A DNA stretch of 28,489 bases from a virus (Duplodnaviria; Heunggongvirae; Uroviricota; Caudoviricetes): IMG/VR virus record IMGVR_UViG_3300032323_003295, positions 1 to 28,489 of that record. One strand, given 5' to 3'. Position numbers and translations under genes: made by a program. Numbering within the stretch: position 1 is the first letter of the stretch; each line of letters starts with the position of its first letter. Below the pieces are notes generated by a model. It was not told where the DNA came from. It was given only the letters and a program-made list of their open reading frames with translations, and did no database searches. Below, in pieces: positions 2,768-22,955 of this stretch.

Positions 2768-3088
2768 TTACTTTCTAAACTTATGTGGATATAAACTTCT
2801 TAGTTCATGTCCTGGTGGTATATCAGATACTTTAATTCCCATTATCTTTTCTTCTGGTGTCATATCTTGTCCATCCATTAAGTAGTTATTATTACTTGCC
2901 CAAACCTCAGCAGTTCTATTAAATAGTTGTCCTACAGAGAAACAAAATCTTATTCCATTTGGATTATCAATATCAGTTATTCTACCATCAGGTGTTTTAG
3001 TAACTTTTATTACTAACCTTGGATTTCTTTTATTAGTGAAAGTAACTACTTTCTCTCTAAACTCTTCAAATATTTTTATATGTTTCAT
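2768..3088 (-). CDS. Hypothetical protein with capsid-targeting-like N-terminus (putative internal virion protein)
   Basis: 106-aa ORF starting MKHIKIFEEFRE. Confidence 0.75.
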   Translation of the reverse strand: MKHIKIFEEFREKVVTFTNKRNPRLVIKVTKTPDGRITDIDNPNGIRFCFSVGQLFNRTAEVWASNNNYLMDGQDMTPEEKIMGIKVSDIPPGHELRSLYPHKFRK

Positions 3089-3090
3089 AA

Positions 3091-3528
3091 TTAATTTATT
3101 TTTAACTTGTCCAGTTCATTTATTATATCATCAATATAAGCATTGAATTTTTTAATGTTTACAAACTTTCTATCAGTTCTTTCAAAAAAATCTTCTATAC
3201 TAGCTACTTTATCAGTTATCTCTTCTATTTTATTCCAAATAAATGGCATTCTTATATCCTCTCTTTGGTAACTATCAAAAAACTCAGGAAATCTATTAAT
3301 TGCCATTTTAGCACTTTCTACTTCTTTACCTGGTTCACATTTAACTAAAAATCCACCATCATATGGTTCTCCTACTAATTTAAGACCTACTCTATCAAGT
3401 AACTTTTTAGCAAAATCATAATCAACATCCTTATTTTTAATCTGATCTGACCAAATGATTACTTCACCTTTTTTATATGAAGGTTGTTGAAGAGGTATTA
3501 CATTTTCAAATAATTTTAAGTATCTCAT
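3091..3528 (-). CDS. Hypothetical protein with capsid-targeting-like N-terminus; possible subtilase-propeptide-like fold
   Basis: 145-aa ORF starting MRYLKLFEN. YKKGEVII...GFLVKCEPGKE...FPEFF pattern. Confidence 0.7.
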   Translation of the reverse strand: MRYLKLFENVIPLQQPSYKKGEVIIWSDQIKNKDVDYDFAKKLLDRVGLKLVGEPYDGGFLVKCEPGKEVESAKMAINRFPEFFDSYQREDIRMPFIWNKIEEITDKVASIEDFFERTDRKFVNIKKFNAYIDDIINELDKLKIN

Positions 3529-3550
3529 TTATTTCTACTATTTTATTATT

Positions 3551-3560
3551 GTATATATTA
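3551..3560 (-). promoter_or_regulatory. Putative late promoter motif TAATATATAC
   Basis: Recurring motif, 22 nt before ATG 3528. Confidence 0.55.
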
Positions 3561-3563
3561 TTT

Positions 3564-3595
3564 TTTGATATTATAAAAATAATTTACTATCTTTG
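3564..3595 (+). promoter_or_regulatory. Bacteroidota primary-sigma promoter (early)
   Basis: TTTG (3564-3567)-N20-TATCTTTG (3588-3595) matches the -33/-7 consensus TTTG/TAnnTTTG. 16 nt before ATG 3612. Confidence 0.75.
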
Positions 3596-3611
3596 TAAAA
3601 AATTATAAATT

Positions 3612-4202
3612 ATGAACATTTGGTTTACTAGTGACACTCACGCATATCACGCTGGAATTGCAGGTCCAGAATTGTCAAAATGGAAGTCTGGTTACAGAAC
3701 TTTCAAAACAGTTCAGGAAATGAATGAGTGTTTGATTGAAACTATCAACAAATATGTAAAAGAAGATGATATTCTTTACCATCTTGGTGACTTCTCTTTT
3801 GGTTCACCACAAAAAATGTATGATTTTAGAAAATCTATAATCTGTAAAACTATTCACTTAATCAAAGGAAACCATGATGAAATTTTTGATGAATTTCATG
3901 AAGAAAAAAGACAAAGATTGTCTTTTGATCCATTTGAATTATTTGCAAGTGTTAGAGATACTTATACAGGTTACATTGGAAAAAACAAATTCCATTTATC
4001 TCACTACTCACACAGAGTATGGCCAAGTTCTCACAAAGGTGTAATTCATCTTTATGGTCACTCACATGGTAGTATTCCAGATTATGGTAAATCAATGGAT
4101 GTTGGTATTGATGCTCACAAAGAGTTCAGACCATTTCATATCAATGAAATACTTCAATTAATGGATAAAAGAGAAATTGTTAAAGTTGATCATCATGTAT
4201 AA
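3612..4202 (+). CDS. Calcineurin-like metallophosphoesterase
   Basis: Motifs SDTH, HLGDFS, GNHD, SHYSH, LYGHSH. Confidence 0.9.
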   Translation: MNIWFTSDTHAYHAGIAGPELSKWKSGYRTFKTVQEMNECLIETINKYVKEDDILYHLGDFSFGSPQKMYDFRKSIICKTIHLIKGNHDEIFDEFHEEKRQRLSFDPFELFASVRDTYTGYIGKNKFHLSHYSHRVWPSSHKGVIHLYGHSHGSIPDYGKSMDVGIDAHKEFRPFHINEILQLMDKREIVKVDHHV

Positions 4203-4518
4203 AGAAGATAGATTTGAAATGGGAGACCAAGTTGTTTGTATAAAACAATATGAAACTCTAAAACCAAAAAGTCACTACAAGATAAAAGGTTGTGGTGACT
4301 TGACTTGGAATGCAGCAACTGATAAAGAAGGTTATGGTTTCTGTATTGAAGATGAATTTTTTGGATCTGATAAGAAAGATTGGTGGAAGAAACCATACTC
4401 AGAAAGAGTAAAATGGTATTACTTTACTGAACAAGAAATGAATGAGTTATTTATTACACAAGCAGAAGATTATGTAACATATACAAGAGATATAAAGTTA
4501 AAAGATTTGGGAATATGA
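4195..4518 (+). CDS. Hypothetical protein (SH3/KOW-like start FEMGDQVVCIK) ending RDIKLKDLGI
   Basis: Track ORF 4177..4518 uses a TTG. The in-frame ATG at 4195 overlapping the upstream stop is the more likely start. Confidence 0.75.
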   Translation: MYKEDRFEMGDQVVCIKQYETLKPKSHYKIKGCGDLTWNAATDKEGYGFCIEDEFFGSDKKDWWKKPYSERVKWYYFTEQEMNELFITQAEDYVTYTRDIKLKDLGI

Positions 4519-4958
4519 ATACAAATGAATTAAGAGAATTACTTAAAGAAGTTTTCTGTGAAGATGAATACAATATTTCTGAAACTGATTATATAAAATA
4601 TGATGAAGAATTAACAAGATTTAATATAAAAGTTTATTCTAAAAAAATGAATAAACATATGGTAATGATTGTAATAGAAAATTATGTAATAGGTACAACA
4701 ATATGTAAGGATATATGGAAAATGATTTGGTCTTTACCTAATCAAAATTATTATATGAAGATACCAGGAACCAGTATTAAAAGAAATCCTAAAGATGTTG
4801 GTGATCCAAAATTCTTTCTAATATTATCAAAAGATAAGATAAATGACATTTTACTCATAAATGAATTAAATAATAATTTAATTAGTGATATGAAAGAAAT
4901 GGATAAAAACTCTATGGTTATGGTAAGAGATAACAAACTAAAAAAATTAGGAATATGA
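4515..4958 (+). CDS. Hypothetical protein ending RDNKLKKLGI
   Basis: 147-aa ORF with ATGA overlaps at both ends. Confidence 0.8.
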   Translation: MNTNELRELLKEVFCEDEYNISETDYIKYDEELTRFNIKVYSKKMNKHMVMIVIENYVIGTTICKDIWKMIWSLPNQNYYMKIPGTSIKRNPKDVGDPKFFLILSKDKINDILLINELNNNLISDMKEMDKNSMVMVRDNKLKKLGI

Positions 4959-5572
4959 TAGATATATTTGGAAATACACCAATTAGACTAAACAGATTAG
5001 TTTGTCACTCTGGTGGTGCATCTGGTGCAGACACTTATTGGGAAACCATAGGTGATAACTATGGTGTAAAGACAAGAGCATATTCTTACAAAACAAAGTA
5101 TCACACTACTGAAAATAAAGTAGAAATTAGTGATAGTGATTATGAAGAAGGTATAAAAGAAATAACTAAAGCAAATAGATTTTTAAGTAGATATGGTATT
5201 CATAAGTTTATGAACTTGTTAGCAAGAAATTGGTCTCAAGTAAAATATTCTGATGAAGTATTTGCAATAGGAACTATAGTAGAACCTGGTAAAAAAGGAT
5301 CTAAAGGATTTTATAATAAATCAGAGTTTCAAGTAGTTGATGGTGGAACTGGTTATGCTGTTCAAATGGCAATAAATAATGGTAAGTTTGTTTATGTATT
5401 TGACCAGGATAAAGACAAATGGTTTAGATGGTCATATACATCACTAAGTTTTATTGAAGTCACAAAACCTCTTAAAATAAGTTATGAAAACTTTGCAGGT
5501 ATTGGGACAAGAGAGATAAAACCTAATGGAATAAAAGCAATAGAAGAAATATATAAATTAACATTTAATTAA
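4955..5572 (+). CDS. SLOG-superfamily (Smf/DprA-LOG, YspA-like) nucleotide-binding protein
   Basis: SGGASGAD, ARN, GGTGYAVQMA, FAGIGTR. Confidence 0.7.
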   Translation: MIDIFGNTPIRLNRLVCHSGGASGADTYWETIGDNYGVKTRAYSYKTKYHTTENKVEISDSDYEEGIKEITKANRFLSRYGIHKFMNLLARNWSQVKYSDEVFAIGTIVEPGKKGSKGFYNKSEFQVVDGGTGYAVQMAINNGKFVYVFDQDKDKWFRWSYTSLSFIEVTKPLKISYENFAGIGTREIKPNGIKAIEEIYKLTFN

Positions 5573-5575
5573 AAC

Positions 5576-5971
5576 ATGGAAAAAGATACAATCATAGTTG
5601 AAATGACACCATTCTTATTTGAAGATGGGAAAACCTATTATTTTGATATTAAGAAAGGATATAGTAATTCTTATCATTATCTGTTTGTGTATAATAAGAT
5701 TGAAAATGTAACTGAAAGAACAACTTGGTTTGGTCTTGGTAAAATTGAAAGAAAAGTAACCAGTGAACTCATTTGTATAAATAAAGGAAATGGTGCTTTA
5801 GTTAATGTAAAACTTAATTCAAAAGAAGTTAAGAGTGAGATTAAAAATGTAATTCTAGCAAATCAAGCAGTAACAAGAATAAAAGACTGGGATGGATTTG
5901 TTGGTGATATACCAGCAGATGCAAGGAAATCATTAGCAAGAGAAGCTAAATTAAATGACTTAGGAATATAA
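5576..5971 (+). CDS. Hypothetical protein ending REAKLNDLGI
   Basis: 131-aa ORF inside the operon. Stop overlaps the next ATG. Confidence 0.8.
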   Translation: MEKDTIIVEMTPFLFEDGKTYYFDIKKGYSNSYHYLFVYNKIENVTERTTWFGLGKIERKVTSELICINKGNGALVNVKLNSKEVKSEIKNVILANQAVTRIKDWDGFVGDIPADARKSLAREAKLNDLGI

Positions 5972-6399
5972 TGTATAAATCAGCAGGAATAATAATTATT
6001 CTAAATAACAAAAAGTTACTTTTAAGTCATCCTACTAATTCAAGATGGAATAATACTTATTCATTTCCTAAAGGTGGAATTGAAGAAGGTGAAAGTCAAA
6101 TTGATGCCGCTATAAGAGAACTTAAAGAAGAAACTTCTATTGAAATAACAGAAGATAGAATAATTGATAAAGAACCAATTACAATTCTTTATAATGATAG
6201 AAGAGGTGTAGTCTATAAAGAAGTTTACCTATTCAAAGTTTATATCAATGATATATCAGAGATTGGGTTGGATAGTGAAACTTTACCAAAAGAAATGTTA
6301 CAGATTGAAGAATTAGACTGGTGTGGTTTCTTAACAAAAGAAGAAGCTAAAACTAAAATATTCTATAGAGTAGAACACTTACTAAACTTAATAGACTAA
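5971..6399 (+). CDS. Nudix hydrolase
   Basis: Nudix box FPKGGIEEGESQIDAAIRELKEETSI. Confidence 0.92.
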   Translation: MYKSAGIIIILNNKKLLLSHPTNSRWNNTYSFPKGGIEEGESQIDAAIRELKEETSIEITEDRIIDKEPITILYNDRRGVVYKEVYLFKVYINDISEIGLDSETLPKEMLQIEELDWCGFLTKEEAKTKIFYRVEHLLNLID

Positions 6400-6426
6400 G
6401 TATGATATAATAAAGAAAAATTTATT

Positions 6427-6828
6427 ATGTCAATACCAAAACCACCATCTAGTTTTTCATTTGCTTATGCTTACCAACAACCAAAAAGAATTGAGTTAAA
6501 TTTAGATAACCCAATTTTTGTATTTTATATATGTGTAAATGGTATGTCAAGACAAAGAGCAGAAGAATATATTCATGATGTTAAAAATCAATTTGATATA
6601 TATAGCAATATAACAATGTGGATTGTTACAACTGATGAACCAACAAAAATTGAATGTGTTTATGATGGTAAAGGTAAAACTAAAGATAGTGAGATTGCAG
6701 GACTTATTGAACAAATAAATGAAAGAATTACTATCTTAGGACAATCTAATTCATTTGAAGATTTCAAAATAAATATAAGAGATTGGAGAATTGACAAAAT
6801 TGTAAAACATCTAAATGAAGAAGACTAG
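6427..6828 (+). CDS. Hypothetical protein
   Basis: 133-aa ORF with RDWRIDKI near the C-terminus. Confidence 0.8.
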   Translation: MSIPKPPSSFSFAYAYQQPKRIELNLDNPIFVFYICVNGMSRQRAEEYIHDVKNQFDIYSNITMWIVTTDEPTKIECVYDGKGKTKDSEIAGLIEQINERITILGQSNSFEDFKINIRDWRIDKIVKHLNEED

Positions 6829-7162
6829 TAAAAAAGAAAAATATGATGTAGTTAGACGTGAATTAGACCTTGAGTTTATTCAGTGGTATGACTATTATGA
6901 TTATTATGATGATTATGATTGGTATTATGATGAATGTAATAATTTTTCCTATATCAAGAAAGATTTTTATGAAGAGATAATATCAGGCCCTATTTTCAGA
7001 AGAAGAAAATGGCAAAATCAATACTTCCCATATCAAATAGTTGATATGAACTCTTTCTATTCAAAACAAGAAAGAAGAAATAAATTGATTGATGAACTAT
7101 TAGGTTATGAAAATCCTAAAGTTGTTTATAAACCAACATTTGCAGATATATGGAAAGGATAA
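6815..7162 (+). CDS. Hypothetical protein with Tyr/Asp tract
   Basis: 115-aa ORF containing WYDYYDYYDDYDWYYDE. Overlaps both neighbours as in an operon. Confidence 0.75.
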   Translation: MKKTSKKEKYDVVRRELDLEFIQWYDYYDYYDDYDWYYDECNNFSYIKKDFYEEIISGPIFRRRKWQNQYFPYQIVDMNSFYSKQERRNKLIDELLGYENPKVVYKPTFADIWKG

Positions 7163-7569
7163 CACCTAATATAATTAAAAGACTTGAAGATAATCAAGTC
7201 TTTGTTTTTGGAGCTAATACTCAGGGTCGTCATGGAAAAGGAGCTGCTCTTACTGCAAGAACTAAGTTTGGTGCCATTTATGGTCAATCTAAAGGTTTAC
7301 AAGGTCAATCATATGCCATAGTAACAAAAGAACTGAGAAAAGATTATGATCCAGTTACTTTAGATGAAATTAAAGAAGGTATTGATAATTTCATTATCTT
7401 TGCTAAAGAAAATACTCACTTAACATTTTATGTAGTTGAGTTAGGTTGTAACTTAGCTTACTTTACTGTAGAGGAAATTGCACCTCTTTTCAAACCAGCA
7501 ATAAGATTAAAAAATGTTTATCTACCACAAAGGTTTATTGACAATTTACAAACAGGATTTACTATATGA
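7150..7569 (+). CDS. Macrodomain-like phage protein (recalled as the A1S_2505-type family)
   Basis: VFVFGANTQGRHGKGAA, FGAIYGQSKGLQGQSYAIVT, FYVVELGCNLA, IAPLF, VYLP. Confidence 0.65.
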   Translation: MERITPNIIKRLEDNQVFVFGANTQGRHGKGAALTARTKFGAIYGQSKGLQGQSYAIVTKELRKDYDPVTLDEIKEGIDNFIIFAKENTHLTFYVVELGCNLAYFTVEEIAPLFKPAIRLKNVYLPQRFIDNLQTGFTI

Positions 7570-7596
7570 ATAAAGAGGATAATAAAATTAGTCAGA

Positions 7597-8274
7597 TTAT
7601 CTAGTAAGTAATTCTGGAGTAATTGTGTTAGTAAATACATCAAGCATTATTTCAGTTCCATATCTTGCATCAATTTCATTCTTTTTGATAGTTTCTATTA
7701 CTTTAGAAGCATTTTCTAAATCAATATTAATATTTGTATTTTGTACTTTTGCTCTAATATCCTCTTTAGAAAGTTCATTACCATATCTATTTTCCCAAGT
7801 TATATTATAGTTTCTATTATTTTCATCTTTACAGAATAATATTATAGTATTAACATATGGTGGTCTTGGTTTACCAAGTTTTACTGTTCTACCATTAGTA
7901 TGATAACTTTGTTGAGGTTGTGGACTACCATATACTGCATAAGCATGTGGTATTAGTTTTAATTTTTCACCTCTAAGTGTAATCTCAATGGCATCACCAA
8001 TTTTAGCAGTATTCTTAACTTCAATAAGAACATTTGTAACGGATTTTCTATATGATAAGTCTGTTTTAGTAATATCTTTACCATAAGCTTGTAATTTAGT
8101 AATTACATCATTATACATTTCAAGAGTTTGATTAAAGTCATACTCACCAGTATATTTAAGTTTAAATTCATTTAATTTTCTTTCAATAGTAAATCCTTCA
8201 TCTACAAACTCTACAAAGTAGTCTTCCAACTGCATTTCAGATTTACTCTCATTAAACTTTTTTAAGTGTTTCAT
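7597..8274 (-). CDS. Hypothetical protein with capsid-targeting-like N-terminus
   Basis: 225-aa ORF starting MKHLKKFNESKSE. Confidence 0.8.
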   Translation of the reverse strand: MKHLKKFNESKSEMQLEDYFVEFVDEGFTIERKLNEFKLKYTGEYDFNQTLEMYNDVITKLQAYGKDITKTDLSYRKSVTNVLIEVKNTAKIGDAIEITLRGEKLKLIPHAYAVYGSPQPQQSYHTNGRTVKLGKPRPPYVNTIILFCKDENNRNYNITWENRYGNELSKEDIRAKVQNTNINIDLENASKVIETIKKNEIDARYGTEIMLDVFTNTITPELLTR

Positions 8275-8275
8275 A

Positions 8276-8307
8276 TTTGTATATATTAAAATTTTATCTT
8301 ATATTTG
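8276..8307 (+). promoter_or_regulatory. Bacteroidota primary-sigma promoter (early)
   Basis: TTTG (8276-8279)-N20-TATATTTG (8300-8307). 18 nt before ATG 8326. Confidence 0.7.
8279..8288 (-). promoter_or_regulatory. Putative late promoter motif TAATATATAC
   Basis: 4 nt before ATG 8274, lying within the early promoter span. Confidence 0.55.
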
Positions 8308-8325
8308 TATTCTAAATAAAACACT

Positions 8326-8478
8326 ATGTACGAGACTATCAATGATTATATGGAAAATCCTAATATGGATCCTTCACAATTAAATGAATTATTAATAATG
8401 GCAGAAGATTTTAAAAATCAGTCTGAATATTTTCAAACAAATGTTGAGAAAGAAACTATAAATGACTTACCTTTCTAA
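8326..8478 (+). CDS. 50-aa acidic peptide ending NDLPF (SSB C-terminal tail-like), absent from the ORF track
   Basis: Translated by hand: MYETINDYMENPNMDPSQLNELLIMAEDFKNQSEYFQTNVEKETINDLPF*. First ORF after the early promoter. Confidence 0.7.
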   Translation: MYETINDYMENPNMDPSQLNELLIMAEDFKNQSEYFQTNVEKETINDLPF

Positions 8479-8480
8479 TT

Positions 8481-8624
8481 ATGACATTACTTTTTATACT
8501 TCTAATTCTAAGTACCTTACTTTTCTTAATGATTGGTATTGATATTTTGATTATACCTAATCTTGATAAAGAAAATAAATTTTTTAAGTGGTGGAATAAA
8601 CATATCATAACAAAAATAAAATAA
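8481..8624 (+). CDS. 47-aa single-pass membrane protein, absent from the ORF track
   Basis: MTLLFILLILSTLLFLMIGIDILIIPNLDKENKFFKWWNKHIITKIK*. Its TAA overlaps ATG 8624. Confidence 0.7.
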   Translation: MTLLFILLILSTLLFLMIGIDILIIPNLDKENKFFKWWNKHIITKIK

Positions 8625-9352
8625 TGTTTGAAACTACAGATGATATGGGAATATATGATACCCCAAGTTGGGTAATAGACTTTGAGCCAAAGAGTGCTTT
8701 AAGAGATTTAAAAATACAGATGATAACTACTGATGATGTTAAATTTTTAGTATCAACTGTGAACATGGAAGTTCATGAAAATGAGCTTGATTTTCTAAAA
8801 ATAGCTTGTCCTGATGATGTTATCACAGGTTCTTTTGCATTAAATCTTTATGGTTTAATAAATAGAAGTTGTAATGATATTGATGTTCTTATCAAAGATA
8901 AAGACAGATATCCAAATGGACATTATTATAATGACCATGGTGCATATAGTGGTGATGTTGCTTTTTCTGAAAACAGATTAGGTTATAAACAACATGTTTA
9001 TAGAAAAGAAGTAACTATAAAAAATCCATTTTTGAATAGTTTGTTATTTATGTTTGTTAATGTAATCAATTATTTAGTAAAAGTTTTTGGTAATGAATAC
9101 ATCTACAAAGTTGATTATTTCTTAGATAATGATGTTAGATATAATACCTTTGAATATAAAGGACATACTTATAAAATTCATTGTCCTCTACAGATAATGG
9201 ATCAAAAATTAGATATGTTTCTAAAAGATACAAATTCACAACATTATCTATCAAGAGACAATAAACATAAAAAAGATTTATTTGTAATATTCAAGAATAT
9301 TAATTTTGATCTTTTTAAAAAAGGTAAGAGTGAACAAAATATCTTATTATAG
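8624..9352 (+). CDS. Pol-beta-superfamily nucleotidyltransferase
   Basis: VITGSFALNLYG...NDIDVLI (GS plus DxD), and a C-terminal KHKKDL helix. Confidence 0.7.
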   Translation: MFETTDDMGIYDTPSWVIDFEPKSALRDLKIQMITTDDVKFLVSTVNMEVHENELDFLKIACPDDVITGSFALNLYGLINRSCNDIDVLIKDKDRYPNGHYYNDHGAYSGDVAFSENRLGYKQHVYRKEVTIKNPFLNSLLFMFVNVINYLVKVFGNEYIYKVDYFLDNDVRYNTFEYKGHTYKIHCPLQIMDQKLDMFLKDTNSQHYLSRDNKHKKDLFVIFKNINFDLFKKGKSEQNILL

Positions 9353-11163: not shown

Positions 11164-11186
11164 AAATCCTTCTTTATGAAGGATTT
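11164..11186. terminator. Bidirectional intrinsic terminator
   Basis: AAATCCTTC-TTTAT-GAAGGATTT with flanking A and T runs, between convergent genes. Confidence 0.8.
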
Positions 11187-12559
11187 CTTTTATTTTCTAT
11201 ACCAAGTTTATTATTTAACATCCAAGTAACATCTGAATTAAAATCTTTTGAATCAACTGAACCATAATCAGAGAAATGAGGTTCAAACTTAAAAGTTCCT
11301 AAGTGAGCCTGACAATATTCTCTAAATACATCATAAAGTGAATAATCTTTTAAGAAGTCATAATCAAATTCTTCAATCCATTTATTATCATATTTAATTT
11401 TATAGAATGTTTGTACTTCTGGATAAGTATGTACTTCTCTTGTACCATCTGGTTTTGTATAACTCTTTTTAACTTCTACTTCTTTATCATATTTAGAATA
11501 TGATAATTCCGCACCATAACTTCTATCTCCAACAATATTATCAAACTCATTAACAAGATCTTTATAATTTTCATCCTGATGAGCACTTGAAGCATGATCC
11601 GCATAAGTTTGTTTAATATCTTGTACTAAATCAGAATTCTTACATAAATCAATTAATGTACTATAAAATCTTTCTTTAGTTAAATATTCTATAACTTCAT
11701 CTTCTGTTAATCCTTCTAATTTATCATTATCTGCTTCTTTAACAAGTTCTTCTAATCCACCATATTCTTTAATCAACGCTTTAACTAATAGAACTTCATT
11801 ATCTTTATTCAAATCATAGTTAAGTAAAGAGTTAGTATCTGGATAATAATCTGAACCCCAGTAGTGGTCACCATCTATTCCATCAATTAATTGACTTTTA
11901 TAACTTTTTTCATCACCTAATAATATATCAGCTAAATCTTCCATACCAACAACAATATAAATATCATTACCTTCTATAAAAGTATCTTTATCTTTTTCAG
12001 ATAACCAGCCATAATACTCACAAAGTTCTTTAACATCAATTTCTACTTCTTTCTTATCCATTACAAACAAGCCAATATTATTATCAATTTGTATATCTTT
12101 AGTCATATCACCACTTTCATCTTCTAAAAAGAATCCACCTTTTATCAATAATTCATCTAAATTTACTTCACTTTTATCTTCATATACTTTTGCTTCAAAA
12201 CCAAGGTCTTCAAAGTAATCAATTGCAGTTAAAACAACATCAGTAACATCTTCATTTGATGGTTTTGTATCATATATATTTATCCAGTATGCAGGTGTCA
12301 CTGAGCCTTTAACTAATTTTTGACCAAATACTTTATAATCATTGTGATACTTTCCACCACTATATCTATATTCAGTTTCTACAAAACCTCTTTCAATATC
12401 AATTGTATATCCTTCATCATTCATTTCAACAAATAACTCTTCAATTTTATCATCTTCAAGTCTATATGTTTTTATTTCTTCAACAGGTCTCATTACTTCA
12501 TCCATAGGAAATAAAGACAATTGTTGTTCTTTAATAAATTGTAAGTATCTTTTTATCAT
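11174..12559 (-). CDS. Large acidic protein with capsid-targeting-like N-terminus followed by QLSLF
   Basis: 461-aa ORF starting MIKRYLQFIKEQQLSLFP. D/E-rich. Confidence 0.85.
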   Translation of the reverse strand: MIKRYLQFIKEQQLSLFPMDEVMRPVEEIKTYRLEDDKIEELFVEMNDEGYTIDIERGFVETEYRYSGGKYHNDYKVFGQKLVKGSVTPAYWINIYDTKPSNEDVTDVVLTAIDYFEDLGFEAKVYEDKSEVNLDELLIKGGFFLEDESGDMTKDIQIDNNIGLFVMDKKEVEIDVKELCEYYGWLSEKDKDTFIEGNDIYIVVGMEDLADILLGDEKSYKSQLIDGIDGDHYWGSDYYPDTNSLLNYDLNKDNEVLLVKALIKEYGGLEELVKEADNDKLEGLTEDEVIEYLTKERFYSTLIDLCKNSDLVQDIKQTYADHASSAHQDENYKDLVNEFDNIVGDRSYGAELSYSKYDKEVEVKKSYTKPDGTREVHTYPEVQTFYKIKYDNKWIEEFDYDFLKDYSLYDVFREYCQAHLGTFKFEPHFSDYGSVDSKDFNSDVTWMLNNKLGIENKRNPS

Positions 12560-12561: not shown

Positions 12562-12948
12562 TTAATAGTTTTTATATATTGGTTCCAAATATGGTAATGG
12601 TTTTTTTAAGTACCAGTGTACTAATGCTCTGTGATTCCCTTCTACTCCAACTGATGGATAATCTAAACCTCTTTCTTGAATATCTTTAATAAGATATTGA
12701 ACATAAGGTTCTTCAATAATATCTTCAATCTCATTTCCAAAATGTTTAGTAACATATTCTTCAATTTCATCTACTGGTAACAACTTAAACTTCCACTGAT
12801 AATCTTCTGGTTGTTCATCACCATATTCATCAAACTGAATATCTATATCAGATTGTACTTCTTCTGGTAAATCATCATACTGATAAGTTTTACCTACTTC
12901 AAAGTCAAACTTATTAGTAAACTTCTCAAAAGTTTTAACATATTTCAT
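12562..12948 (-). CDS. Protein with capsid-targeting-like N-terminus and ParB/sulfiredoxin-like motif
   Basis: Starts MKYVKTFEKF. LIKDIQERGLDYPSVGVEGNHRAL resembles the ParB-N L..SI...G...P....DGxHR pattern. Confidence 0.6.
   Translation of the reverse strand: MKYVKTFEKFTNKFDFEVGKTYQYDDLPEEVQSDIDIQFDEYGDEQPEDYQWKFKLLPVDEIEEYVTKHFGNEIEDIIEEPYVQYLIKDIQERGLDYPSVGVEGNHRALVHWYLKKPLPYLEPIYKNY
12572..12581 (-). promoter_or_regulatory. Possible late promoter motif CAATATATAA inside the end of the upstream gene
   Basis: Core AATATATA 12 nt before ATG 12559. Also explained by codons PIYK. Confidence 0.35.
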
Positions 12949-12952: not shown

Positions 12953-12962
12953 GTATATATAA
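12953..12962 (-). promoter_or_regulatory. Putative late promoter motif TTATATATAC
   Basis: 4 nt before ATG 12948. Confidence 0.55.
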
Positions 12963-13012: not shown

Positions 13013-13990
13013 TTATATTTTAGAAAGCAATTCTTCTTTCTTTGTTGTAAACTCTTCTTCTGTTAATATTCCTACTTTGTGAAGTTCACCAAGTTTTTCT
13101 AAAAGAACAATACTATCAATCTTTTCTTGGGTTAGAGATATTGTAGTAGTTTTTTTTATTTCTTTTGTTTCAACTGGTTTTCTACTATCTGGTAGTAATT
13201 GAACTATAGTTGATGCAATGTAATAATTATCAAAGTCCATATCAACTGTTTCAAACTTTTGTTTAGATTTTGAACCTTTTTCTACTCTACCAGTTTCAAT
13301 ACTTAATGATTTCTCACTTGAGAAACTAGTTTGTGTAAAACTATTACTAATAGGCATAGAATCAATTGTACTTGAATAGTATGCATTATTTGTTGATTTA
13401 AGATTTGTTAAATCAATTGCCCCTGTTGAACAATAGACATTTCCAGTATTTGTAGTTGTAGTTGCAATTGAACCACCTATTGTTGTATTACAATTAGTTG
13501 TTGTAATTCCATTACCATAATAAACTGTATAAGGATTTGTTGTACCCCAAGGATAAGTAGGATAAACCCAGTAAGGATATGTTCTACCAGTTAGAATACG
13601 ATTAAACTTATTGCTCCAGTTTTCTAATGTAACAACAGATTCTCTATAGAAGAAAACTTCTAATAAACCATTTTTTGCAATTGCATTTGCTACTTCTGTA
13701 GTGTCTTCAACTTCATAAGTATTGAAAATGAATTTCTTTTTATCATCAATAAAACAATCTAAATAAAATCTTTGACCTGGATTTAATACCAGACCTGTTT
13801 GTGAAATTGATTTACCATTTAATTTGATGTCTGCTAGTATGCAGTCTTGAAGTGGATTGAAAAGTTCTATTACAAATTCTTCTTTATCTTGAAGATAAAC
13901 TTTTCCTTTTTTGATAGATTTTCTTCCTCTATCTTTTGAGTTAACTACCCACGCACTTGGTGTAGTAGTTGTTTTGACTTGTTTTGCCAT
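13013..13990 (-). CDS. Uncharacterised protein: N-terminal beta-rich domain, low-complexity T/Y/P linker, C-terminal SHOCT domain
   Basis: C-terminus LLEKLGELHKVGILTEEEFTTKKEELL fits the SHOCT consensus. N-terminal YLQDKEEFVIELFNP...LNG...GLVLNPGQRFYL. Confidence 0.8.
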   Translation of the reverse strand: MAKQVKTTTTPSAWVVNSKDRGRKSIKKGKVYLQDKEEFVIELFNPLQDCILADIKLNGKSISQTGLVLNPGQRFYLDCFIDDKKKFIFNTYEVEDTTEVANAIAKNGLLEVFFYRESVVTLENWSNKFNRILTGRTYPYWVYPTYPWGTTNPYTVYYGNGITTTNCNTTIGGSIATTTTNTGNVYCSTGAIDLTNLKSTNNAYYSSTIDSMPISNSFTQTSFSSEKSLSIETGRVEKGSKSKQKFETVDMDFDNYYIASTIVQLLPDSRKPVETKEIKKTTTISLTQEKIDSIVLLEKLGELHKVGILTEEEFTTKKEELLSKI

Positions 13991-14010
13991 TTTGTTTTTT
14001 TAATTTTTGG

Positions 14011-14070
14011 ATCCATATCTTTGATTCTTTTCAAAATCTCAAAGGCATCCTATTGATACCCGACATGAAT
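14011..14070 (-). ncRNA. Candidate structured cis-regulatory RNA (three-way junction) in a 5' UTR
   Basis: AUUCAUGUC-G-GGUAUC[AAUAG]GAUGCC-UUUGA..GAAA..UCAAA-GAUAUGGAU. 9-bp P1, 6-bp P2 and a P3 that can close a GAAA tetraloop. G-U pairs form only on the minus strand. Confidence 0.6.
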
Positions 14071-14088
14071 TATATAACAGCTATAATT

Positions 14089-14098
14089 TTATATATTA
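14089..14098 (-). promoter_or_regulatory. Putative late promoter motif TAATATATAA
   Basis: Recurring motif, 98 nt before ATG 13990. Confidence 0.55.
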
Positions 14099-14114
14099 GA
14101 TTTTTATTCTTTTG

Positions 14115-14146
14115 TTTGGAAAAAATAATAATTTGTATTATCTTTG
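14115..14146 (+). promoter_or_regulatory. Bacteroidota primary-sigma promoter (early)
   Basis: TTTG (14115-14118)-N20-TATCTTTG (14139-14146). 18 nt before ATG 14165. Confidence 0.75.
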
Positions 14147-14164
14147 TTAAAATAAATCTAAATA

Positions 14165-15446: not shown

Positions 15447-15472
15447 AAAAACCCATCTTATGATGGGTTTTT
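15447..15472. terminator. Bidirectional intrinsic terminator
   Basis: AAAAACCCATC-TTAT-GATGGGTTTTT between convergent genes. Confidence 0.85.
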
Positions 15473-15679
15473 TAATTTATCTATTATATCAGATGATTTA
15501 ATTGTTTCATCTGGAGCATTTTTTATTTCTGATTGACTAATGTTATGACTTACTTTATATTTTGTCTTAGAAATCTTCTCTACTATCTTACATGGTGTAA
15601 TCATATTGTTGTACCAGTATTCTATAAGAACAATATCACCAACATTATAAAATGACTTAAACTCTAATATAAACTTCAT
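15458..15679 (-). CDS. Small SH3/Tudor-like protein with capsid-targeting-like N-terminus
   Basis: MKFILEFKSF-YNVGDIVLIEYW...CKIVEK...YKVSH...ETIKSSDII. Confidence 0.65.
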   Translation of the reverse strand: MKFILEFKSFYNVGDIVLIEYWYNNMITPCKIVEKISKTKYKVSHNISQSEIKNAPDETIKSSDIIDKLKNPS

Positions 15680-15682
15680 AAA

Positions 15683-15692
15683 CTATATATTA
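15683..15692 (-). promoter_or_regulatory. Putative late promoter motif TAATATATAG
   Basis: 3 nt before ATG 15679, overlapping the phoH stop. Confidence 0.55.
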
Positions 15693-16556: not shown

Positions 16557-16772
16557 GTGAAGAAAACAGACGATTTAATTTATGATTTAATATTCTCAAA
16601 GGAAACCTATTTTTTAATTGATATTTCTGATTATATAGAAGACATATATCAATATGAAAATTTTATAATTAAACTAAGAGAAATATTAAAAAAATCAAAA
16701 GTTTATATTGTGAAAAATGAAGTTTTAGTTGACAGCAAAACAGTTATGTGGGAATTAAAAGTAAGAAAATAA
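16557..16772 (+). CDS. Small hypothetical protein; true start may be ATG 16537 via a -1 frameshift or indel
   Basis: 71 aa from GTG 16557. The A7T7 run upstream puts ATG 16537 one base out of frame. Confidence 0.7.
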   Translation: MKKTDDLIYDLIFSKETYFLIDISDYIEDIYQYENFIIKLREILKKSKVYIVKNEVLVDSKTVMWELKVRK

Positions 16773-16775
16773 TTT

Positions 16776-19700
16776 ATGTGGATATTTAACAAGGATTATA
16801 ACAAATGGGTTATAACAGAGGATCAATTAACTAAAAGTAATTTTGATTATTTAAAACAAGAACTTGTTTCTACAAGATACTATTCAAAGTGTCTTAGTGG
16901 TGCTACTTATCTACCAATAAATACTGTAGATAATATCTATGATATTTTAGGTGAATATGAACCAAGAAACTGGTACATAGACAGTTCTGGTTCTCAATAT
17001 TCTTATACTGCAATTCCACAAAATGCAAGCCCAATTAATGCAATAACTTCAAATAATTATTATACAAAATATTTATCAGAATATGGTTTAACATTAAAAA
17101 ATTTATTTACACCTGATAGATTAATAAAGGATTCTATTAATTATTTATATGTTGATGTTGCCACAACTGAACAGATAAATTTAAGTACAAGATATACAAA
17201 TCTTATTATAGATGGTGTTAAATTACTTGATGGTCATAGACTTTTGGTTAAAGACCAAATATCAATTGAAACATTACCATTTGATACTGATCCTAATACA
17301 TACTTTAAGGGTAATTATACTTTAGTACAAGATTATGGAACAACAATAGAATATAACTATTATAATTCTGAAAATGGAATATACCTGTTTAACAATGGTT
17401 ATTTGACTAAAACTGATGATTTATCATTATATGAGGATTGTATAAGATATAGTGTTTCAGTTAAGTTAGGTACTATTAATACACAAAGACAATTTCATTT
17501 AAGTAGATTATTAAGTGGATATTATCCAACTTCATCTTTGAATGAACCTGTTGAGTTTATTGAAAAACATAATTGGTTATTAAGAAATAGAGTAGATTAT
17601 AATAATCTATTTGAAATTAACTATTATGATGTTTTAAAACATGATCCACAAACTTATAAAATTAATTCAATTACTTATAGTATTCCACAGAGAACTATTG
17701 CAGTTGGTGAATTTGGTGTTATATTAAATACACAACAATTTACAGGTCTAACTGGTACATCAAATATAATTCCTAATAAGTATAAAGTTAATTTAAGAGC
17801 AATTACACAAACCGAAATGTATTATTGGATATGTGGGGATGATGGAACTTTATTAAAAGTTAGAAAACATGATTTTTTATTAGAAAAAGTTAATATCAAT
17901 ATAATAAAAAATTTAAAGTCTGTATCATTTTTTAATAATTTAAAAGGTGTTATAGTTGGTGACTTAAATACAATATTAATAACTAATGATGGTGGGTTAA
18001 GCTGGGATAGTATAATTGTGGATGATTTTGAATCTTATTATTATAATAAAGTACTTTTTCAATCACAAGACAAAATTTATATTGTAGGTAATACAGGTGT
18101 TTTTATTGAATTAGAACAAGATATTTCCGGATGGACTGCATATAAAAGAAGAATATCAAAGTTCATTGATGATTATGAAGAATATTTATTAGTTGATAAT
18201 ATTAATGATATTATTTATTCAAATGTTTTTTGGAATTTATCAAGTTCAAATGAAAATACACAATCTAGAGATTCTGGAACAACAACAACAATAAAAGAGT
18301 TTTTGTTATTAGTTACTAATGATGGTAAGATAATTGCAAATGATTTAAACTCTGTAACTAATTTTGATTTTATTTATTTAGAGTTTAATTCAATTTATGG
18401 TGATATAACTAATATAAAGCAAAAAGGAACTTCAAACTATTTCTTTTTTTCTGGTGATGAGGATATATCAAGATTTGATATAAATAAATTTACTAATATA
18501 GGTGTTTTTAATGGTGTTTTTAATCAATACTCAAACACTATAATTAGTAGTGAAGATGCATTTAGTTATACAAATAATGAATTGGGAATAAACAAAATAT
18601 TTGATTATAATTCAGAAGAGTTAATTATATGTGGAAATACTTCTTTATTAAAGACTACTATTTATGATAATCCTTTAAACTTTAATTCATTAGATGATAA
18701 CTTTGAATCAAGATTAAAATCTAAAATGTTATTTGTTGATTATGATGTTGCAAGTAAATTAAATTTCTTTACTGATGCAGGTGAGTATAGATTACCAAGT
18801 TCAACATCATTTAATTTAGTTAATAGTTTAGATGATATTACATATTCAAATAATACTTCTCAAGATATTAACCAAAACACTATAGGTTTTTTAAAATCTA
18901 TAATACAAGTTAATAATACTTCTGATAAAAATCCTATAGATATTGAGATTAAATTAAATTTAATAAATCCAGCAGGTATAACTAATTTATTAATTAATTT
19001 AAAGGCTCCTAATGGAAGAGTAATAAATTTAAAAAAATCCAGTTCTGGTACAGGTACAACACTTTCAAATGTGAAATTTACCACATCATCTGATTATACT
19101 AAATTTAGAGAATCATTTGCACCTTATACTAATAATACTTATCAAATGGATAAGATATTACTAAGTAATACTTTCACACTTATTCCTAATGCAAATACAA
19201 AAATTTTATCAGATTTATTAAACTTTGATGGTGGATTTACAGGTAATTGGGAATTATACATACAATGGAACCAAGTAAATGCAGGAATATTTTTACCAAA
19301 TTCACCATATTATTATAGTAGTCAAGGTGTTGGTGTTGGAAACTTATTAATAGGGAAACTTTTTGGATGGGATTTAAAATTTGTTTATAAACTACCAAAT
19401 GAAATTAATTTAAACTGTTTATCATTTAAACCTTTAGTTTATGGACCAACTGCACCAAGTTTTATGACACAATCAGAAACCAATTGGTTAACATACTGGA
19501 GAGATAGACAAAAGACATTTGAGTATTATTCTGACATGCCTTTAGATGAAAGTAGCAAAGTTGAAATATCAACAGATTTTTGTAAATCTATTTCATCAAT
19601 TAGAAATATTTCATCAACTAACATAACTAATTCATTGGATGCAATTTCAAGGTTAGCCCCTTCTTTATTAGATACTACACAAAGTAGATTTAATGGTTTA

Positions 19701-22529
19701 GGACTAACACCAATATCTGGACCAAATGAGTTATATGATATTTATTTCTATGATTATTTAATGATACTAAGAGTTCGTATAAATTTTCCAGTTAATGTTG
19801 GAGATGTAATCAGTTTAACAAGTTCTATTGTTGATAGTCAGTTTATTGTTAATAGAGTTGAAACTTTACCAAATTGGGATCAACCAAGTGTTAGTAGTAA
19901 GTATATTTATATGTATATGGATTTTAATGATAATATAATTACTGAATTAATGAAAACAGACAATCCTATTATTATTACTAACTTAAACAAGTTTCAAAAT
20001 ATAACACAATTAGAACAAAGATTTAATGTACATCCTATTTCAAATGGTTATCAATTAACATATAATAATACAAATAATATTAAAATAGATGCCAAGTTTA
20101 ATAATATAACATCTTATTATAATTTAGCAACTCAAGTAATTGCAACTGGAACTAATGAAGCAAATATTCCTATTACTCTAAAAAGAGAAATGGTATATAC
20201 TGATGGGTTCTTAAAATTTGGATATACTCCAACTTATAATTTATTAGATTATTTAGAAGGTTTAAATGATACTACAAATTTATCAGTTGCCAAATTTACT
20301 GCAGATAAAGAATACTATGCAATGCCACATTATAAGGCAATACCTATGCAAGCTTCACTTAGTGCAAATTCAACAGGGGCTTATTTTAATTTTAATGGTA
20401 TTGATTTCAGTAACAACAATACAAAACCAAGTAATATATTACAATTTGGTAGAGAATTAAAATTAGAATGGCAAAGTATATTTATAGATACATTTGTAGA
20501 TATAATAATGTATTCTGATAATGACTATTATAATCCTCCAATTGGCACAACATATAGTACTGAAAGATTATTAGTAACTAAAAAGTATTATGATAGTATA
20601 AATGAAACTTATGTTATTGAATTTGGTAAAAGTATAATATTTCCAATTGGTAGTCAACCTAGATTTATTGATATTTTATCAAGAAGAACCTTATTACAAA
20701 TAAGTGAAGACTTACAAGAGTTAAATAATATTCAAAGACCAAGATTTAATAATAGAATTATAGATAATGGAGAGAATAACTTTTATAACTATGATAGAAC
20801 TACAAATTATAAAATATCAACAGATTCATATACTAAAATTTTATTATCTGATGTAGATACTATTAAGGAATTATCTGCAATTGTTTATACTGATTATAAG
20901 AATGAACTGGCAATGAATATAACAAGACTTGCAAGAGAATATAGTATTAAGATAACAGATACTGATGTATATAATGACAAACTGCTTATAATTTGTGGTG
21001 AGAAACATGAATTAAAAAATAGTGATGGTGTTATTTTAGAATTTAATGGTGGAACATTCTCTTCTGAGGTTTTAAATCAACAATATTTTGGATATCATAT
21101 AGTTAATGTAGTTGATGAATATAAAATATGGGTAGATATACCATATATTAATAACACTATTGTTAATGATACAGGATTTTTGAAATATACTAAAAGTGAT
21201 CCTTTCTTTAATTATCAACCTGTTGATATTATTGATGTTGGTGTTAACAAAAAAGGTAAAATTGCAATTGAATTAAGTATTGATAACTTGAAACTAACTA
21301 ATGATGTTTATAGTCTAATAAATGTTGACTATAACAAATATAGATTTAGATTAATTGATGGTTTAAATATAGAAACACTATCACTTCAATATCCTTGGAT
21401 TTTAGAAGCAGAAGTTTCAGGTGCATTGTTGGGACTTGACATAAATGGATTAGTTTGGTATAAAGGTTATTGGGAATGTGGAAGATGGTTTGGTGGAACT
21501 TGGATATCAGGTACTTGGAAGTCAGGTGACTGGTTTGCAGGTACTTGGAATTCTAAAAGAATAACAGATAATTTAATATCAGTTGAAGTAGATAATAGTG
21601 TATCAGATACAATACAATCAACTTGGTTTGGTGGTAGATGGTATGATGGTACTTGGAATAATGGTACTTGGGTTGATGGTAGATGGTATGGTGGTACTTG
21701 GAATAATGGTGAATGGTATAATGGTATTTGGAATGATGGTACTTGGAATAATGGTATTTTATCAGGTGGAATTTGGGTAACAGGAGTTTGGAATAGTGGA
21801 ATATTTAATTGTGATAATAATCCAGCTTATTGGATAGATGGTAAATGGAGTGGTGGTGACTTTGAGAATGGTATTTGGTATAATGGTATATTTGAAGAAA
21901 AAAATTCATTTGCAAGATTTGGTACTAAAGCATATAATAGTAGAACTGCAAACTGGAGAGCTGGTAAATGGTTAAGTGGAAGTTTCTATTCAAGAATGAT
22001 TACTGATAATAATGAATTACCTGTAGTTTCAATATCTCATAAATATTCAATATGGAAAACAGGTACTTGGTTTACTGGTGATTGGTATGGAGGTATTGCA
22101 TACAATATGGATTTTCAATCAGGAAATTGGTATGGTGGTATATTGGAGGATATTCAAGTTATTGGTATTACTTATAATAGTGATGAAGATAGATATATTA
22201 CATTAAATGGAAAGTTTGATTTTAATATTGGTGATGAAATAAATATTTTAAATACTTTTGGACTTACAAATAGTATTGAAGGCCAATATAAGGTTATAAA
22301 ACCTAGTGAAGTTGATTCTTTTAATAATAAAACCAGATGTGATATTAATATAAACTTTGGTTACAATACAACAGATAATGATAGTGAAACTGGATTAAGA
22401 GTTGTTAGTAGATTTAGAAGTACAAATTGGAAATCAGGTATTTGGACAAATGGTATTTATGAAACTGGACTTTGGGAAGGTGGTATTTGGTATAATGGAA
22501 TCTTTAAAGATGGTGCAAATTGGATGTAA
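16776..22529 (+). CDS. 1917-aa mosaic virion protein (tail/baseplate/fibre-like)
   Basis: VDVATT...IDGV...RLLVKDQ...NGIY fibre-type module, BNR/Ycf48-like propeller repeats, a P-domain-like jelly roll and about 30 WxxG pentapeptides at the C-terminus. Confidence 0.85.
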   Translation: MWIFNKDYNKWVITEDQLTKSNFDYLKQELVSTRYYSKCLSGATYLPINTVDNIYDILGEYEPRNWYIDSSGSQYSYTAIPQNASPINAITSNNYYTKYLSEYGLTLKNLFTPDRLIKDSINYLYVDVATTEQINLSTRYTNLIIDGVKLLDGHRLLVKDQISIETLPFDTDPNTYFKGNYTLVQDYGTTIEYNYYNSENGIYLFNNGYLTKTDDLSLYEDCIRYSVSVKLGTINTQRQFHLSRLLSGYYPTSSLNEPVEFIEKHNWLLRNRVDYNNLFEINYYDVLKHDPQTYKINSITYSIPQRTIAVGEFGVILNTQQFTGLTGTSNIIPNKYKVNLRAITQTEMYYWICGDDGTLLKVRKHDFLLEKVNINIIKNLKSVSFFNNLKGVIVGDLNTILITNDGGLSWDSIIVDDFESYYYNKVLFQSQDKIYIVGNTGVFIELEQDISGWTAYKRRISKFIDDYEEYLLVDNINDIIYSNVFWNLSSSNENTQSRDSGTTTTIKEFLLLVTNDGKIIANDLNSVTNFDFIYLEFNSIYGDITNIKQKGTSNYFFFSGDEDISRFDINKFTNIGVFNGVFNQYSNTIISSEDAFSYTNNELGINKIFDYNSEELIICGNTSLLKTTIYDNPLNFNSLDDNFESRLKSKMLFVDYDVASKLNFFTDAGEYRLPSSTSFNLVNSLDDITYSNNTSQDINQNTIGFLKSIIQVNNTSDKNPIDIEIKLNLINPAGITNLLINLKAPNGRVINLKKSSSGTGTTLSNVKFTTSSDYTKFRESFAPYTNNTYQMDKILLSNTFTLIPNANTKILSDLLNFDGGFTGNWELYIQWNQVNAGIFLPNSPYYYSSQGVGVGNLLIGKLFGWDLKFVYKLPNEINLNCLSFKPLVYGPTAPSFMTQSETNWLTYWRDRQKTFEYYSDMPLDESSKVEISTDFCKSISSIRNISSTNITNSLDAISRLAPSLLDTTQSRFNGLGLTPISGPNELYDIYFYDYLMILRVRINFPVNVGDVISLTSSIVDSQFIVNRVETLPNWDQPSVSSKYIYMYMDFNDNIITELMKTDNPIIITNLNKFQNITQLEQRFNVHPISNGYQLTYNNTNNIKIDAKFNNITSYYNLATQVIATGTNEANIPITLKREMVYTDGFLKFGYTPTYNLLDYLEGLNDTTNLSVAKFTADKEYYAMPHYKAIPMQASLSANSTGAYFNFNGIDFSNNNTKPSNILQFGRELKLEWQSIFIDTFVDIIMYSDNDYYNPPIGTTYSTERLLVTKKYYDSINETYVIEFGKSIIFPIGSQPRFIDILSRRTLLQISEDLQELNNIQRPRFNNRIIDNGENNFYNYDRTTNYKISTDSYTKILLSDVDTIKELSAIVYTDYKNELAMNITRLAREYSIKITDTDVYNDKLLIICGEKHELKNSDGVILEFNGGTFSSEVLNQQYFGYHIVNVVDEYKIWVDIPYINNTIVNDTGFLKYTKSDPFFNYQPVDIIDVGVNKKGKIAIELSIDNLKLTNDVYSLINVDYNKYRFRLIDGLNIETLSLQYPWILEAEVSGALLGLDINGLVWYKGYWECGRWFGGTWISGTWKSGDWFAGTWNSKRITDNLISVEVDNSVSDTIQSTWFGGRWYDGTWNNGTWVDGRWYGGTWNNGEWYNGIWNDGTWNNGILSGGIWVTGVWNSGIFNCDNNPAYWIDGKWSGGDFENGIWYNGIFEEKNSFARFGTKAYNSRTANWRAGKWLSGSFYSRMITDNNELPVVSISHKYSIWKTGTWFTGDWYGGIAYNMDFQSGNWYGGILEDIQVIGITYNSDEDRYITLNGKFDFNIGDEINILNTFGLTNSIEGQYKVIKPSEVDSFNNKTRCDININFGYNTTDNDSETGLRVVSRFRSTNWKSGIWTNGIYETGLWEGGIWYNGIFKDGANWM
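21456..22526 (+). repeat. W-x-x-G-x pentapeptide coding repeat
   Basis: About 30 WxxG units counted, e.g. WYDGTWNNGTWVDGRWYGGTWNNGEWYNGIWNDGTWNNG. Confidence 0.9.
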
Positions 22530-22534
22530 AAAGT

Positions 22535-22544
22535 TAATATATAG
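22535..22544 (+). promoter_or_regulatory. Putative late promoter motif TAATATATAG
   Basis: 3 nt before ATG 22548. Confidence 0.55.
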
Positions 22545-22547
22545 ATT

Positions 22548-22955
22548 ATGATAAAAAGATATACACAATTTGTAAATGAGGCAGATGATGCCAATATTGA
22601 TGATACACCAGGGGTTAAATCATTAGATTCAAATAAGTTTACTGAACTTAAAGATGAAGTTAAAAAGATGATTGATAATACTATTTCTAAAAGTGGTGGT
22701 GAGTTTGCATCTTTTGTTGAATCATTTGAAAAGAATCCAGAAGATGTTAAAGTTGAAGGATTTATAAATGATGCTGATATATATGACTTTTATCTTAAAT
22801 TCAGAAATGATATAGATGAGGTTCTCAATGGTGTTAAATTCTATGATGAGGCACCTACAGGAGTAAATGCATATGGTTTATATGAATATACTATAAAGGG
22901 TACAGAAAAAGCTTTTATGGAAATAGTAAAGATGTTACAAACAAATCCTCAGTAA
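22548..22955 (+). CDS. Acidic protein with capsid-targeting-like N-terminus (putative internal head protein)
   Basis: Starts MIKRYTQFVNEA, close to the T4 CTS MKTYQEFIAE. Confidence 0.8.
   Translation: MIKRYTQFVNEADDANIDDTPGVKSLDSNKFTELKDEVKKMIDNTISKSGGEFASFVESFEKNPEDVKVEGFINDADIYDFYLKFRNDIDEVLNGVKFYDEAPTGVNAYGLYEYTIKGTEKAFMEIVKMLQTNPQ

Follow-up and report, generated by a model that had tools for sequence, protein, structure and literature searches.

A shared N-terminal tag on proteins of very large phages: a candidate capsid-targeting leader of the T4 type

The window examined in this study is a stretch of 28,489 nucleotides (nt) forming the first 28.5 kb of the 92.5-kb IMG/VR contig IMGVR_UViG_3300032323_003295, a Caudoviricetes sequence with a guanine-plus-cytosine (GC) content of 27.7%, and six of its proteins, perhaps seven, begin with variants of one short N-terminal tag. 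This shared tag is real, restricted to the N-terminus and selected at the peptide level. Judged from sequence comparison with phage T4 and with complete genomes of the same lineage, it is probably a T4-type capsid-targeting leader that a clade of approximately 600-kb Bacteroidota phages would use far more widely than T4.

The three internal proteins (IPs) of T4 are the textbook example of proteins injected with phage DNA against host defences. Their capsid-targeting sequence (CTS), MKTYQEFIAE, directs IPs, and likewise foreign proteins, to the core of the prohead and is removed thereafter (PMC8442874), the removal being attributed to the prohead protease gp21 (Mullaney and Black 1996, as cited in PMC8442874, PMC3012670 and PMC5694885). 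T-even IPs are otherwise diverse, defence-countering proteins with the CTS as their sole common part (PMC3012670).

The contig was estimated by CheckV to be approximately 16% complete, and its UvsX-like recombinase shares 74–76% identity with those of LR756502 (642 kb) and LR745206 (635 kb), both complete genomes of uncultured phages, in which open reading frames (ORFs) were called by the same procedure as in the contig. Further-off relatives by UvsX were a 636-kb phage, a 735-kb phage and the Lak phages.

Distribution of the tag and its association with late genes

A first-pass annotation of the window had listed seven ORFs as sharing a T4-like N-terminus, and all seven were located with their starts and N-terminal residues. 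A loose tag pattern (M-[KR]-x-[ILVM]-x-x-[FYW], also accepted with a one-residue displacement) was found at 7 of 33 non-overlapping window ORFs, where the background in the same proteins was 0.78% per position (binomial P approximately 6e-9), and at 12 of 103 ORFs in the whole contig. The complete relatives carried the pattern on 150 of 970 (LR756502) and 114 of 938 (LR745206) ORFs, equivalent to 12–15% of ORFs, and its frequency in LR756502 was 13.6% at N-termini in comparison to 0.4% at internal positions and 0.5% after internal methionines, a 33-fold N-terminal restriction. Starts of the 'MK...' type are frequent in AT-rich genomes, and the resemblance could be seen as arising by chance in a genome of 28% GC whose proteome is rich in Lys, Ile, Phe, Tyr and Asn, as is probably the case for MKFILEF. 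For the tag set as a whole, chance and composition were rejected on the basis of the N-terminal enrichment, the low probability calculated for the window and the strict association with late genes described below, and we give this explanation hardly any credence.

Two consensus classes of tag were apparent, the commoner reading M-K-[HY]-[LI]-K-x-[YF]-[NKE]-[EI]-[FS]-E-S and the second M-[IL]-K-[KR]-[YW]-x-[QE]-F-[IV]-x-E. In the window, the starts at 3088, 3528, 8274 and 12948 (all minus strand) fall into the sub-class M-[KR]-[HY]-[ILV]-K-x-F-[EN]-x, and those at 12559 (minus strand) and 22548 (plus strand) into the sub-class M-I-K-[RK]-Y-x-Q-F-[IV]-x-E. Six members of the set as first listed stand; the seventh, MKFILEFKSF (start 15679, minus strand), is doubtful, with neither a glutamate at residues 8–14 nor a linker. 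Glutamate at residues 8–14 was found in 96–100% of strict tags in comparison to 35–42% of untagged N-termini, and the residue following it in strict tags was mostly S, N or A, while I or V at the P3 position was a property of some tag classes only. A Sec or lipoprotein signal peptide, for which a hydrophobic core of approximately 7–15 uncharged residues behind a basic N-terminus was taken as the criterion, was ruled out by direct reading of the tags, which have charged residues every 2–4 positions (MKHLKKFNESKSE, MIKRYLQFIKEQ) and no hydrophobic core. A genuine signal peptide encoded on the contig (MKKTSILLFLLITAF) is unlike the tags.

Plus-strand operons in the window are preceded by TAnnTTTG promoters of the Bacteroidota type (3588, 8300, 9889 and 14139), indicating that these operons are probably early and that the host of the window phage is probably a member of the Bacteroidota. 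The motif TAATATATA and its variants are plausibly late, and in LR756502 a AATATATA motif is found ahead of the portal, protease-scaffold and capsid genes. As had been noted at first pass, all seven ORFs lie in units with the late motif, which is directly upstream of five of them, the genes starting at 3088 and 12559 being second in their units; their description as antisense among early operons was also fair, because the plus-strand neighbours carry the Bacteroidota-type promoters. With timing judged by promoter motif alone, the tag was found on 61 of 185 late-motif genes and 0 of 50 early-motif genes in LR756502 (P = 7e-8), on 41 of 167 and 1 of 67, respectively, in LR745206 (P = 6e-6), and on 8 of 20 and 0 of 10 in the contig (P = 0.03). 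Early promoter-like motifs (TAnnTTTG, plus strand) and late ones (TAATATATA, minus strand) stand back to back in the short intergenic regions 3529–3611, 8275–8325 and 13991–14164. The distance from late motif to ATG in LR756502 was bimodal (4–8 nt or 18–28 nt).

Alternatively, the conservation may lie in the nucleic acid, with the first dozen codons serving as a late promoter or leaderless initiation element, or as a handle for cassette recombination. Many tagged genes begin 4–5 nt past TAATATATA and are therefore probably leaderless, and codon 2 over-uses AAA (82% vs 61%). Synonymous codons were nevertheless mixed at every conserved residue (His CAC 33 / CAT 26; Tyr3 TAT 21 / TAC 20; Leu TTA 47 / CTA 24 / CTT 7 / TTG 6; Lys5 AAA 44 / AAG 34), indicating that it is the peptide that is under selection. 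Half of the tagged genes, including 2768–3088 and 11174–12559, are operon-internal and have no upstream motif (61 of 122 strictly tagged LR756502 genes had no promoter motif within 30 nt upstream), and the absence of a promoter directly upstream of 2768–3088 indicates that the tag is independent of a leaderless start. The same motif spacing was also seen on untagged genes, such as that of a 1783-amino-acid (aa) protein at contig position 45424. Mixed codons and operon-internal tagged genes led us to reject a nucleotide-level element, and we consider this explanation improbable.

Probable relationship of the tag to a T4-type head

The head module of LR756502 gave matches to Portal_T4 (196 bits) and Gp23 (99.5 bits), with a 699-aa protein encoded in between. 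The first approximately 170 residues of this protein matched Peptidase_S77 at 20–23 bits, which is sub-threshold (cut-off 27), and the remainder is scaffold-like, with Y-S-E-Y-[ILV]-A-E recurring at a strict 14-residue period. A predicted gp21-type protease and scaffold were present in LR756502, LR745206 and 80 IMG/VR relatives. The top three PDB fold matches to a model of the protease domain built from the IMG/VR relatives (predicted local distance difference test score, pLDDT, 64.5) were T4 gp21 chains (5JBL; E 3e-5, probability 1.00), followed by weak matches to herpesvirus proteases; sequence and profile searches of this domain against the PDB returned nothing, T4 gp21 being found by fold comparison only.

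The protease-scaffold gene of LR756502 spans 225272–227371, and the central part of its product consists of 10–11 exact-period 14-residue repeats of the form Y-S-E-Y-[ILV]-A-E-N-L-D-K-N-I-x. Between 9 and 12 scaffold heptads, with N or H next, were counted in each of the 80 IMG/VR relatives, whose capsid proteins have a conserved N-terminal ...EYAEFHSINE-NAY. Each 14-residue repeat ends in a likely protease site, suggesting that the scaffold is built for chopping into 14-mers. The T4 prohead core proteins gp22, gp67 and gp68 are cut to small peptides by gp21, and the repeats described here, with N or H behind [ILV]-A-E, look made for the same fate. In contrast to T4, protease and scaffold form a single fusion protein, and the scaffold repeat corresponds to the tag of the putative cargo. 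An 83-aa ORF of LR745206 (460435–460686, minus strand) contains three heptads (YEDYIAE, YSEYISE and YCDYLCE) at 14-residue spacing and may be a small free-standing scaffold-like protein. In Lak-A2, the protease-scaffold gene is not adjacent to the capsid gene.

A census of the heptad pattern [YW]x[QEDN][FY][ILV]xE gave 35 matches in LR756502, of which 15 were at N-termini, 11 in the protease-scaffold and 9 elsewhere, and again 35 in LR745206 (14, 11 and 10, respectively). The contig, on which the protease-scaffold gene does not lie, had four matches, all at N-termini and including both window proteins of the MIKRY type, and T4 had three, two at residue 4 of IPII and IPIII, none in the scaffold and one elsewhere that is unrelated. 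A heptad common to scaffold and MIKRY-type tag links this tag both to the core of the prohead and to the prohead protease. LR756504 and the 735-kb LR756501 have kept the same heptad and are therefore uninformative for co-variation of tag and scaffold.

The T4 resemblance first proposed for all seven N-termini is clearest for the MIKRY class (11174–12559 and 22548–22955), which has the specific heptad; the other four or five tags resemble only the MKTFKEF of IPI. The 54-aa hypothetical protein of T4 gene 61.1 (NC_000866 18966–19130, minus strand) also starts like the IPI and CTS leaders, with MKTFKEFIKED. Like the CTS of IPII and IPIII, the tag is a leader of approximately ten residues at the extreme N-terminus of unrelated, fast-evolving proteins, its MIKRY class presents Y-x-[QE]-F-I-x-E at residues 4–11, nearly all tags end in glutamate plus a small residue, and the tag occurs on genes that are late by motif, in a lineage with gp20-, gp21- and gp23-type head genes. 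The differences are that the tag is found on 12–15% of genes in comparison to three in T4, that it has at least two sub-classes, that the heptad is repeated in a scaffold fused to the protease, that the tagged proteins are mostly acidic, and that the present system is known from sequence alone. The phenomenon would appear to be best read as a variant of the capsid-targeting system of T4 on a much enlarged scale.

The fate proposed for the tagged proteins, from docking through cleavage and retention inside the head to injection, is inferred, as is any role that the cargo may have. Tagged proteins would be produced late, and their first 8–13 residues would dock them on a prohead core that consists, in these phages, of the protease-scaffold fusion with its coiled-coil-like repeat part, the MIKRY-type tag resembling one scaffold repeat unit moved to the N-terminus. 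Once the shell had closed, the gp21-type protease would cut behind the tag glutamate, as it presumably also does in the scaffold repeats and in the N-terminal piece of the capsid protein. The bodies would then remain in the head and could exit with the DNA.

The tag can also be interpreted as a real peptide signal on late proteins that has no connection with the head, such as a helix that docks with a phage chaperone or at some other late assembly site, or a signal for stability or degradation. Peptide-level selection and the restriction to N-termini and late genes would fit any late-acting peptide signal, so many tagged genes would be less surprising if the tag served sorting or stability in general, and ordinary-looking enzymes (RNA ligase, lysozyme-like, SET, 2H phosphoesterase and HNH proteins) are among the tagged products of LR756502. 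A signal of this kind leaves unexplained that the MIKRY tag has the heptad of the T4 CTS, that this heptad is otherwise concentrated in the protease-scaffold, and that glutamate plus a small residue stands at the end of nearly every tag, and we consider it unlikely, while holding it to be the strongest of the alternatives.

Proteins behind the tag and their possible delivery

The view that the bodies behind the tag are mostly unrelated was borne out, as the seven window proteins share no family match in Pfam or PHROGs, where searches with them gave nothing above noise. When the first 16 residues were removed from the 150 tagged LR756502 proteins, the remainders formed 135 clusters, of which 127 were singletons (blastp, E 1e-4); an ordinary paralogous family was ruled out by this clustering together with the lack of shared family matches in the window. 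Tagged proteins are small and acidic (median 160 aa, median isoelectric point 5.2), and the majority have no Pfam domain. Domains recognized among strictly tagged LR756502 proteins were a T4 Rnl1-like RNA ligase, a T4-lysozyme-like domain, SET, a 2H phosphoesterase (LigT/Acb1-like) and an HNH nuclease.

Turnover was faster among tagged than among untagged genes. An orthologue was shared between LR756502 and LR745206 by 31% of tagged in comparison to 48% of untagged genes (28% and 47%, respectively, when matched for size), and in tagged orthologue pairs the conservation of the tag (55%) exceeded that of the body (43%), the opposite being seen for untagged proteins.

The 135-aa protein (22548–22955) has 789 homologues, and among the 120 of these that were listed, K3 was found in 119, Y5 in 118, F8 in 119, E11 in 120 and A12 in 115. 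The family has an indel-rich linker of variable length behind the tag, followed by a conserved helical domain. Structure prediction, which had been suggested for the cargo proteins, yielded an AlphaFold2 model for this protein (mean pLDDT 66.5) with residues 1–21 disordered, and Foldseek comparison of the model with PDB and BFVD gave no informative match. For the 461-aa protein (11174–12559), 132 homologues were found with body identity down to 33%, and even at this level nearly all N-termini read ..[KR]-[YW]-x-x-F-[IL]-[KN]-E-S/Q. A QLSLF motif directly follows its tag (residues 13–17; 12509–12523, minus strand) and is kept in the closer homologues only (MIKRYLQFIKEQQLSLFP..., ..KESKQLSLFP..), the distant ones lacking it (MKLKRYIQFIKESLKEDL...). 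In tblastn searches of 50,697 phage records, the 461-aa protein had one uncultured match and the 225-aa protein none, and the ESM Atlas gave no usable match for either.

Acidic bodies, as in scaffold proteins, would also be consistent with a role as auxiliary parts of the core or scaffold, comparable to T4 gp67 and gp68. Tagged proteins would in that case be taken into the prohead and cleaved, only to be degraded or expelled at maturation, and there would be no injected arsenal. The likeness of the tag to the scaffold repeat fits such a role, and the tagged genes at 221232, 222007 and 231351 flank the head module of LR756502. More than 100 unrelated bodies with fast turnover are hard to square with a structural function, as are the enzyme domains on some of them, and we judge an auxiliary-core role to be rather unlikely, somewhat more so than a signal unconnected with the head.

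Our confidence in head targeting by a T4-type leader, which we prefer, exceeds our confidence in an injected arsenal. It is possible, and we put it forward tentatively, that the clade loads more than 100 rapidly exchanged proteins (12–15% of its genes) by means of an N-terminal copy of the scaffold repeat and its cut site and delivers them with the DNA. The proposal made at first pass that the seven window proteins have an anti-defence or takeover role is speculation.

Several points weigh against the targeting interpretation. Neither a protease nor any head-module gene lies on the incomplete contig. Were every tagged protein cargo, head cargo would account for 12–15% of the genes, a share that has no precedent. 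In the commoner tag class (MKHLKKFNES and its like), P3 is F or Y instead of I or L and there is no match to the scaffold heptad, and the bodies are mostly acidic whereas T4 internal proteins are described as basic (PMC8442874). The Pfam S77 match does not reach its curated cut-off, the model of the protease has no more than medium confidence, and the T4 scaffold has no heptad, so that the idea of scaffold mimicry lacks precedent. PTm1, a Tenacibaculum phage and the closest cultured relative by capsid protein (27.6% identity), has a fused protease-scaffold with different scaffold repeats and no tag expansion, and the tag is not known from a cultured phage.

T4 packs approximately 1000 IP molecules alongside 170 kb of DNA (PMC8442874, PMC3012670). 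By rough calculation at the same ratio, a 640-kb head might hold a few thousand molecules of approximately 18 kDa, or tens of copies of each of 100–150 species, which makes the number of tags surprising but not physically impossible. A gp21-like protease is likewise found in the giant phages SPN3US, phiKZ and 201phi2-1, where it processes many head-internal proteins that are later ejected (PMC5694885, PMC7411985, PMC10052503). Their propeptides are mostly 80–130 residues long with no single short shared tag (PMC5694885), and approximately 50 head proteins there compare with more than 100 tagged proteins here, in another lineage with other hosts. Our literature search yielded no account of CTS-like tags multiplied in this way in huge phages, and none is mentioned in Iyer et al. 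2021.

Were the tag indeed to mark injected cargo, sequence alone would be enough to list the proteins that an uncultured phage injects, and these would include RNA ligase, lysozyme, SET methyltransferase and 2H phosphoesterase. A large part of megaphage 'dark matter' would become a defined and testable class, with a ready list of more than 100 candidate counter-defence or takeover proteins per genome, and, as a scaffold-repeat mimic subject to the same protease, the tag would offer a mechanistic handle on cargo docking. The tag could also yield new packaging tags for engineered capsids. If its role proved to be another, it would represent a still undescribed sorting signal on 12–15% of the proteome in the largest known phages.

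Tagged genes, late motifs and other features of the window

Positions of the tagged genes and of the associated late motifs are listed in Table 1.

Table 1. Genes with the shared N-terminus and late-motif occurrences in the window.
Feature	Position	Strand	Remarks
106-aa protein, tag MKHIKIFEEFRE	2768..3088	-	second gene of the unit starting at 3528; LR745206 orthologue (64% identity) begins MKHLKSFNEG
145-aa late protein, tag MRYLKLFEN	3091..3528	-	LR745206 orthologue (32% identity) begins MKHLKKFNEE
Late motif TAATATATA	3552..3560	-	23 nt ahead of ATG 3528; back-to-back with early-type TATCTTTG at 3588 (+)
225-aa late protein, tag MKHLKKFNE then S	7597..8274	-	orphan; no match in phage database, family libraries or atlas
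Late motif TAATATATA	8280..8288	-	5 nt ahead of ATG 8274; back-to-back with early-type TATATTTG at 8300 (+)
461-aa acidic late protein, tag MIKRYLQFIKE then Q	11174..12559	-	second gene of late unit; heptad match
128-aa late protein, tag MKYVKTFEKF	12562..12948	-	first gene of the unit with 11174–12559; no orthologue in LR756502 or LR745206
Late-motif variant TTATATATA	12954..12962	-	5 nt ahead of ATG 12948; just past a terminator-like hairpin
73-aa protein, MKFILEFKSF start, doubtful member	15458..15679	-	68% identity over full length to both relatives
Late motif TAATATATA	15684..15692	-	4 nt ahead of ATG 15679
Late motif TAATATATA	22535..22543	+	4 nt ahead of ATG 22548
135-aa late protein, tag MIKRYTQFVNE then A	22548..22955	+	tag, variable linker, conserved helical domain

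Two large untagged proteins are also encoded on the plus strand. A 1917-aa protein (16776–22529) has a long run of G-x-W-x-x-G-x-W-type repeats at its C-terminal end, and the next large protein after it (26832–28487) contains a G-x-x run resembling collagen (GATGAQGLQGPTGSTGPTG...). A fibre or baseplate role is likely for both.

Shared termini of other kinds were also observed. The UvsX/RecA-like protein (699–1922, minus strand) and an unrelated 325-aa protein (13013–13990, minus strand) both begin with MAKQVK. Three unrelated early proteins on the plus strand (4177–4518, 4515–4958 and 5576–5971) end alike, in ...RDIKLKDLGI, ...RDNKLKKLGI and ...REAKLNDLGI, respectively, which by sequence looks like a second shared tag, in this case C-terminal and on early genes.

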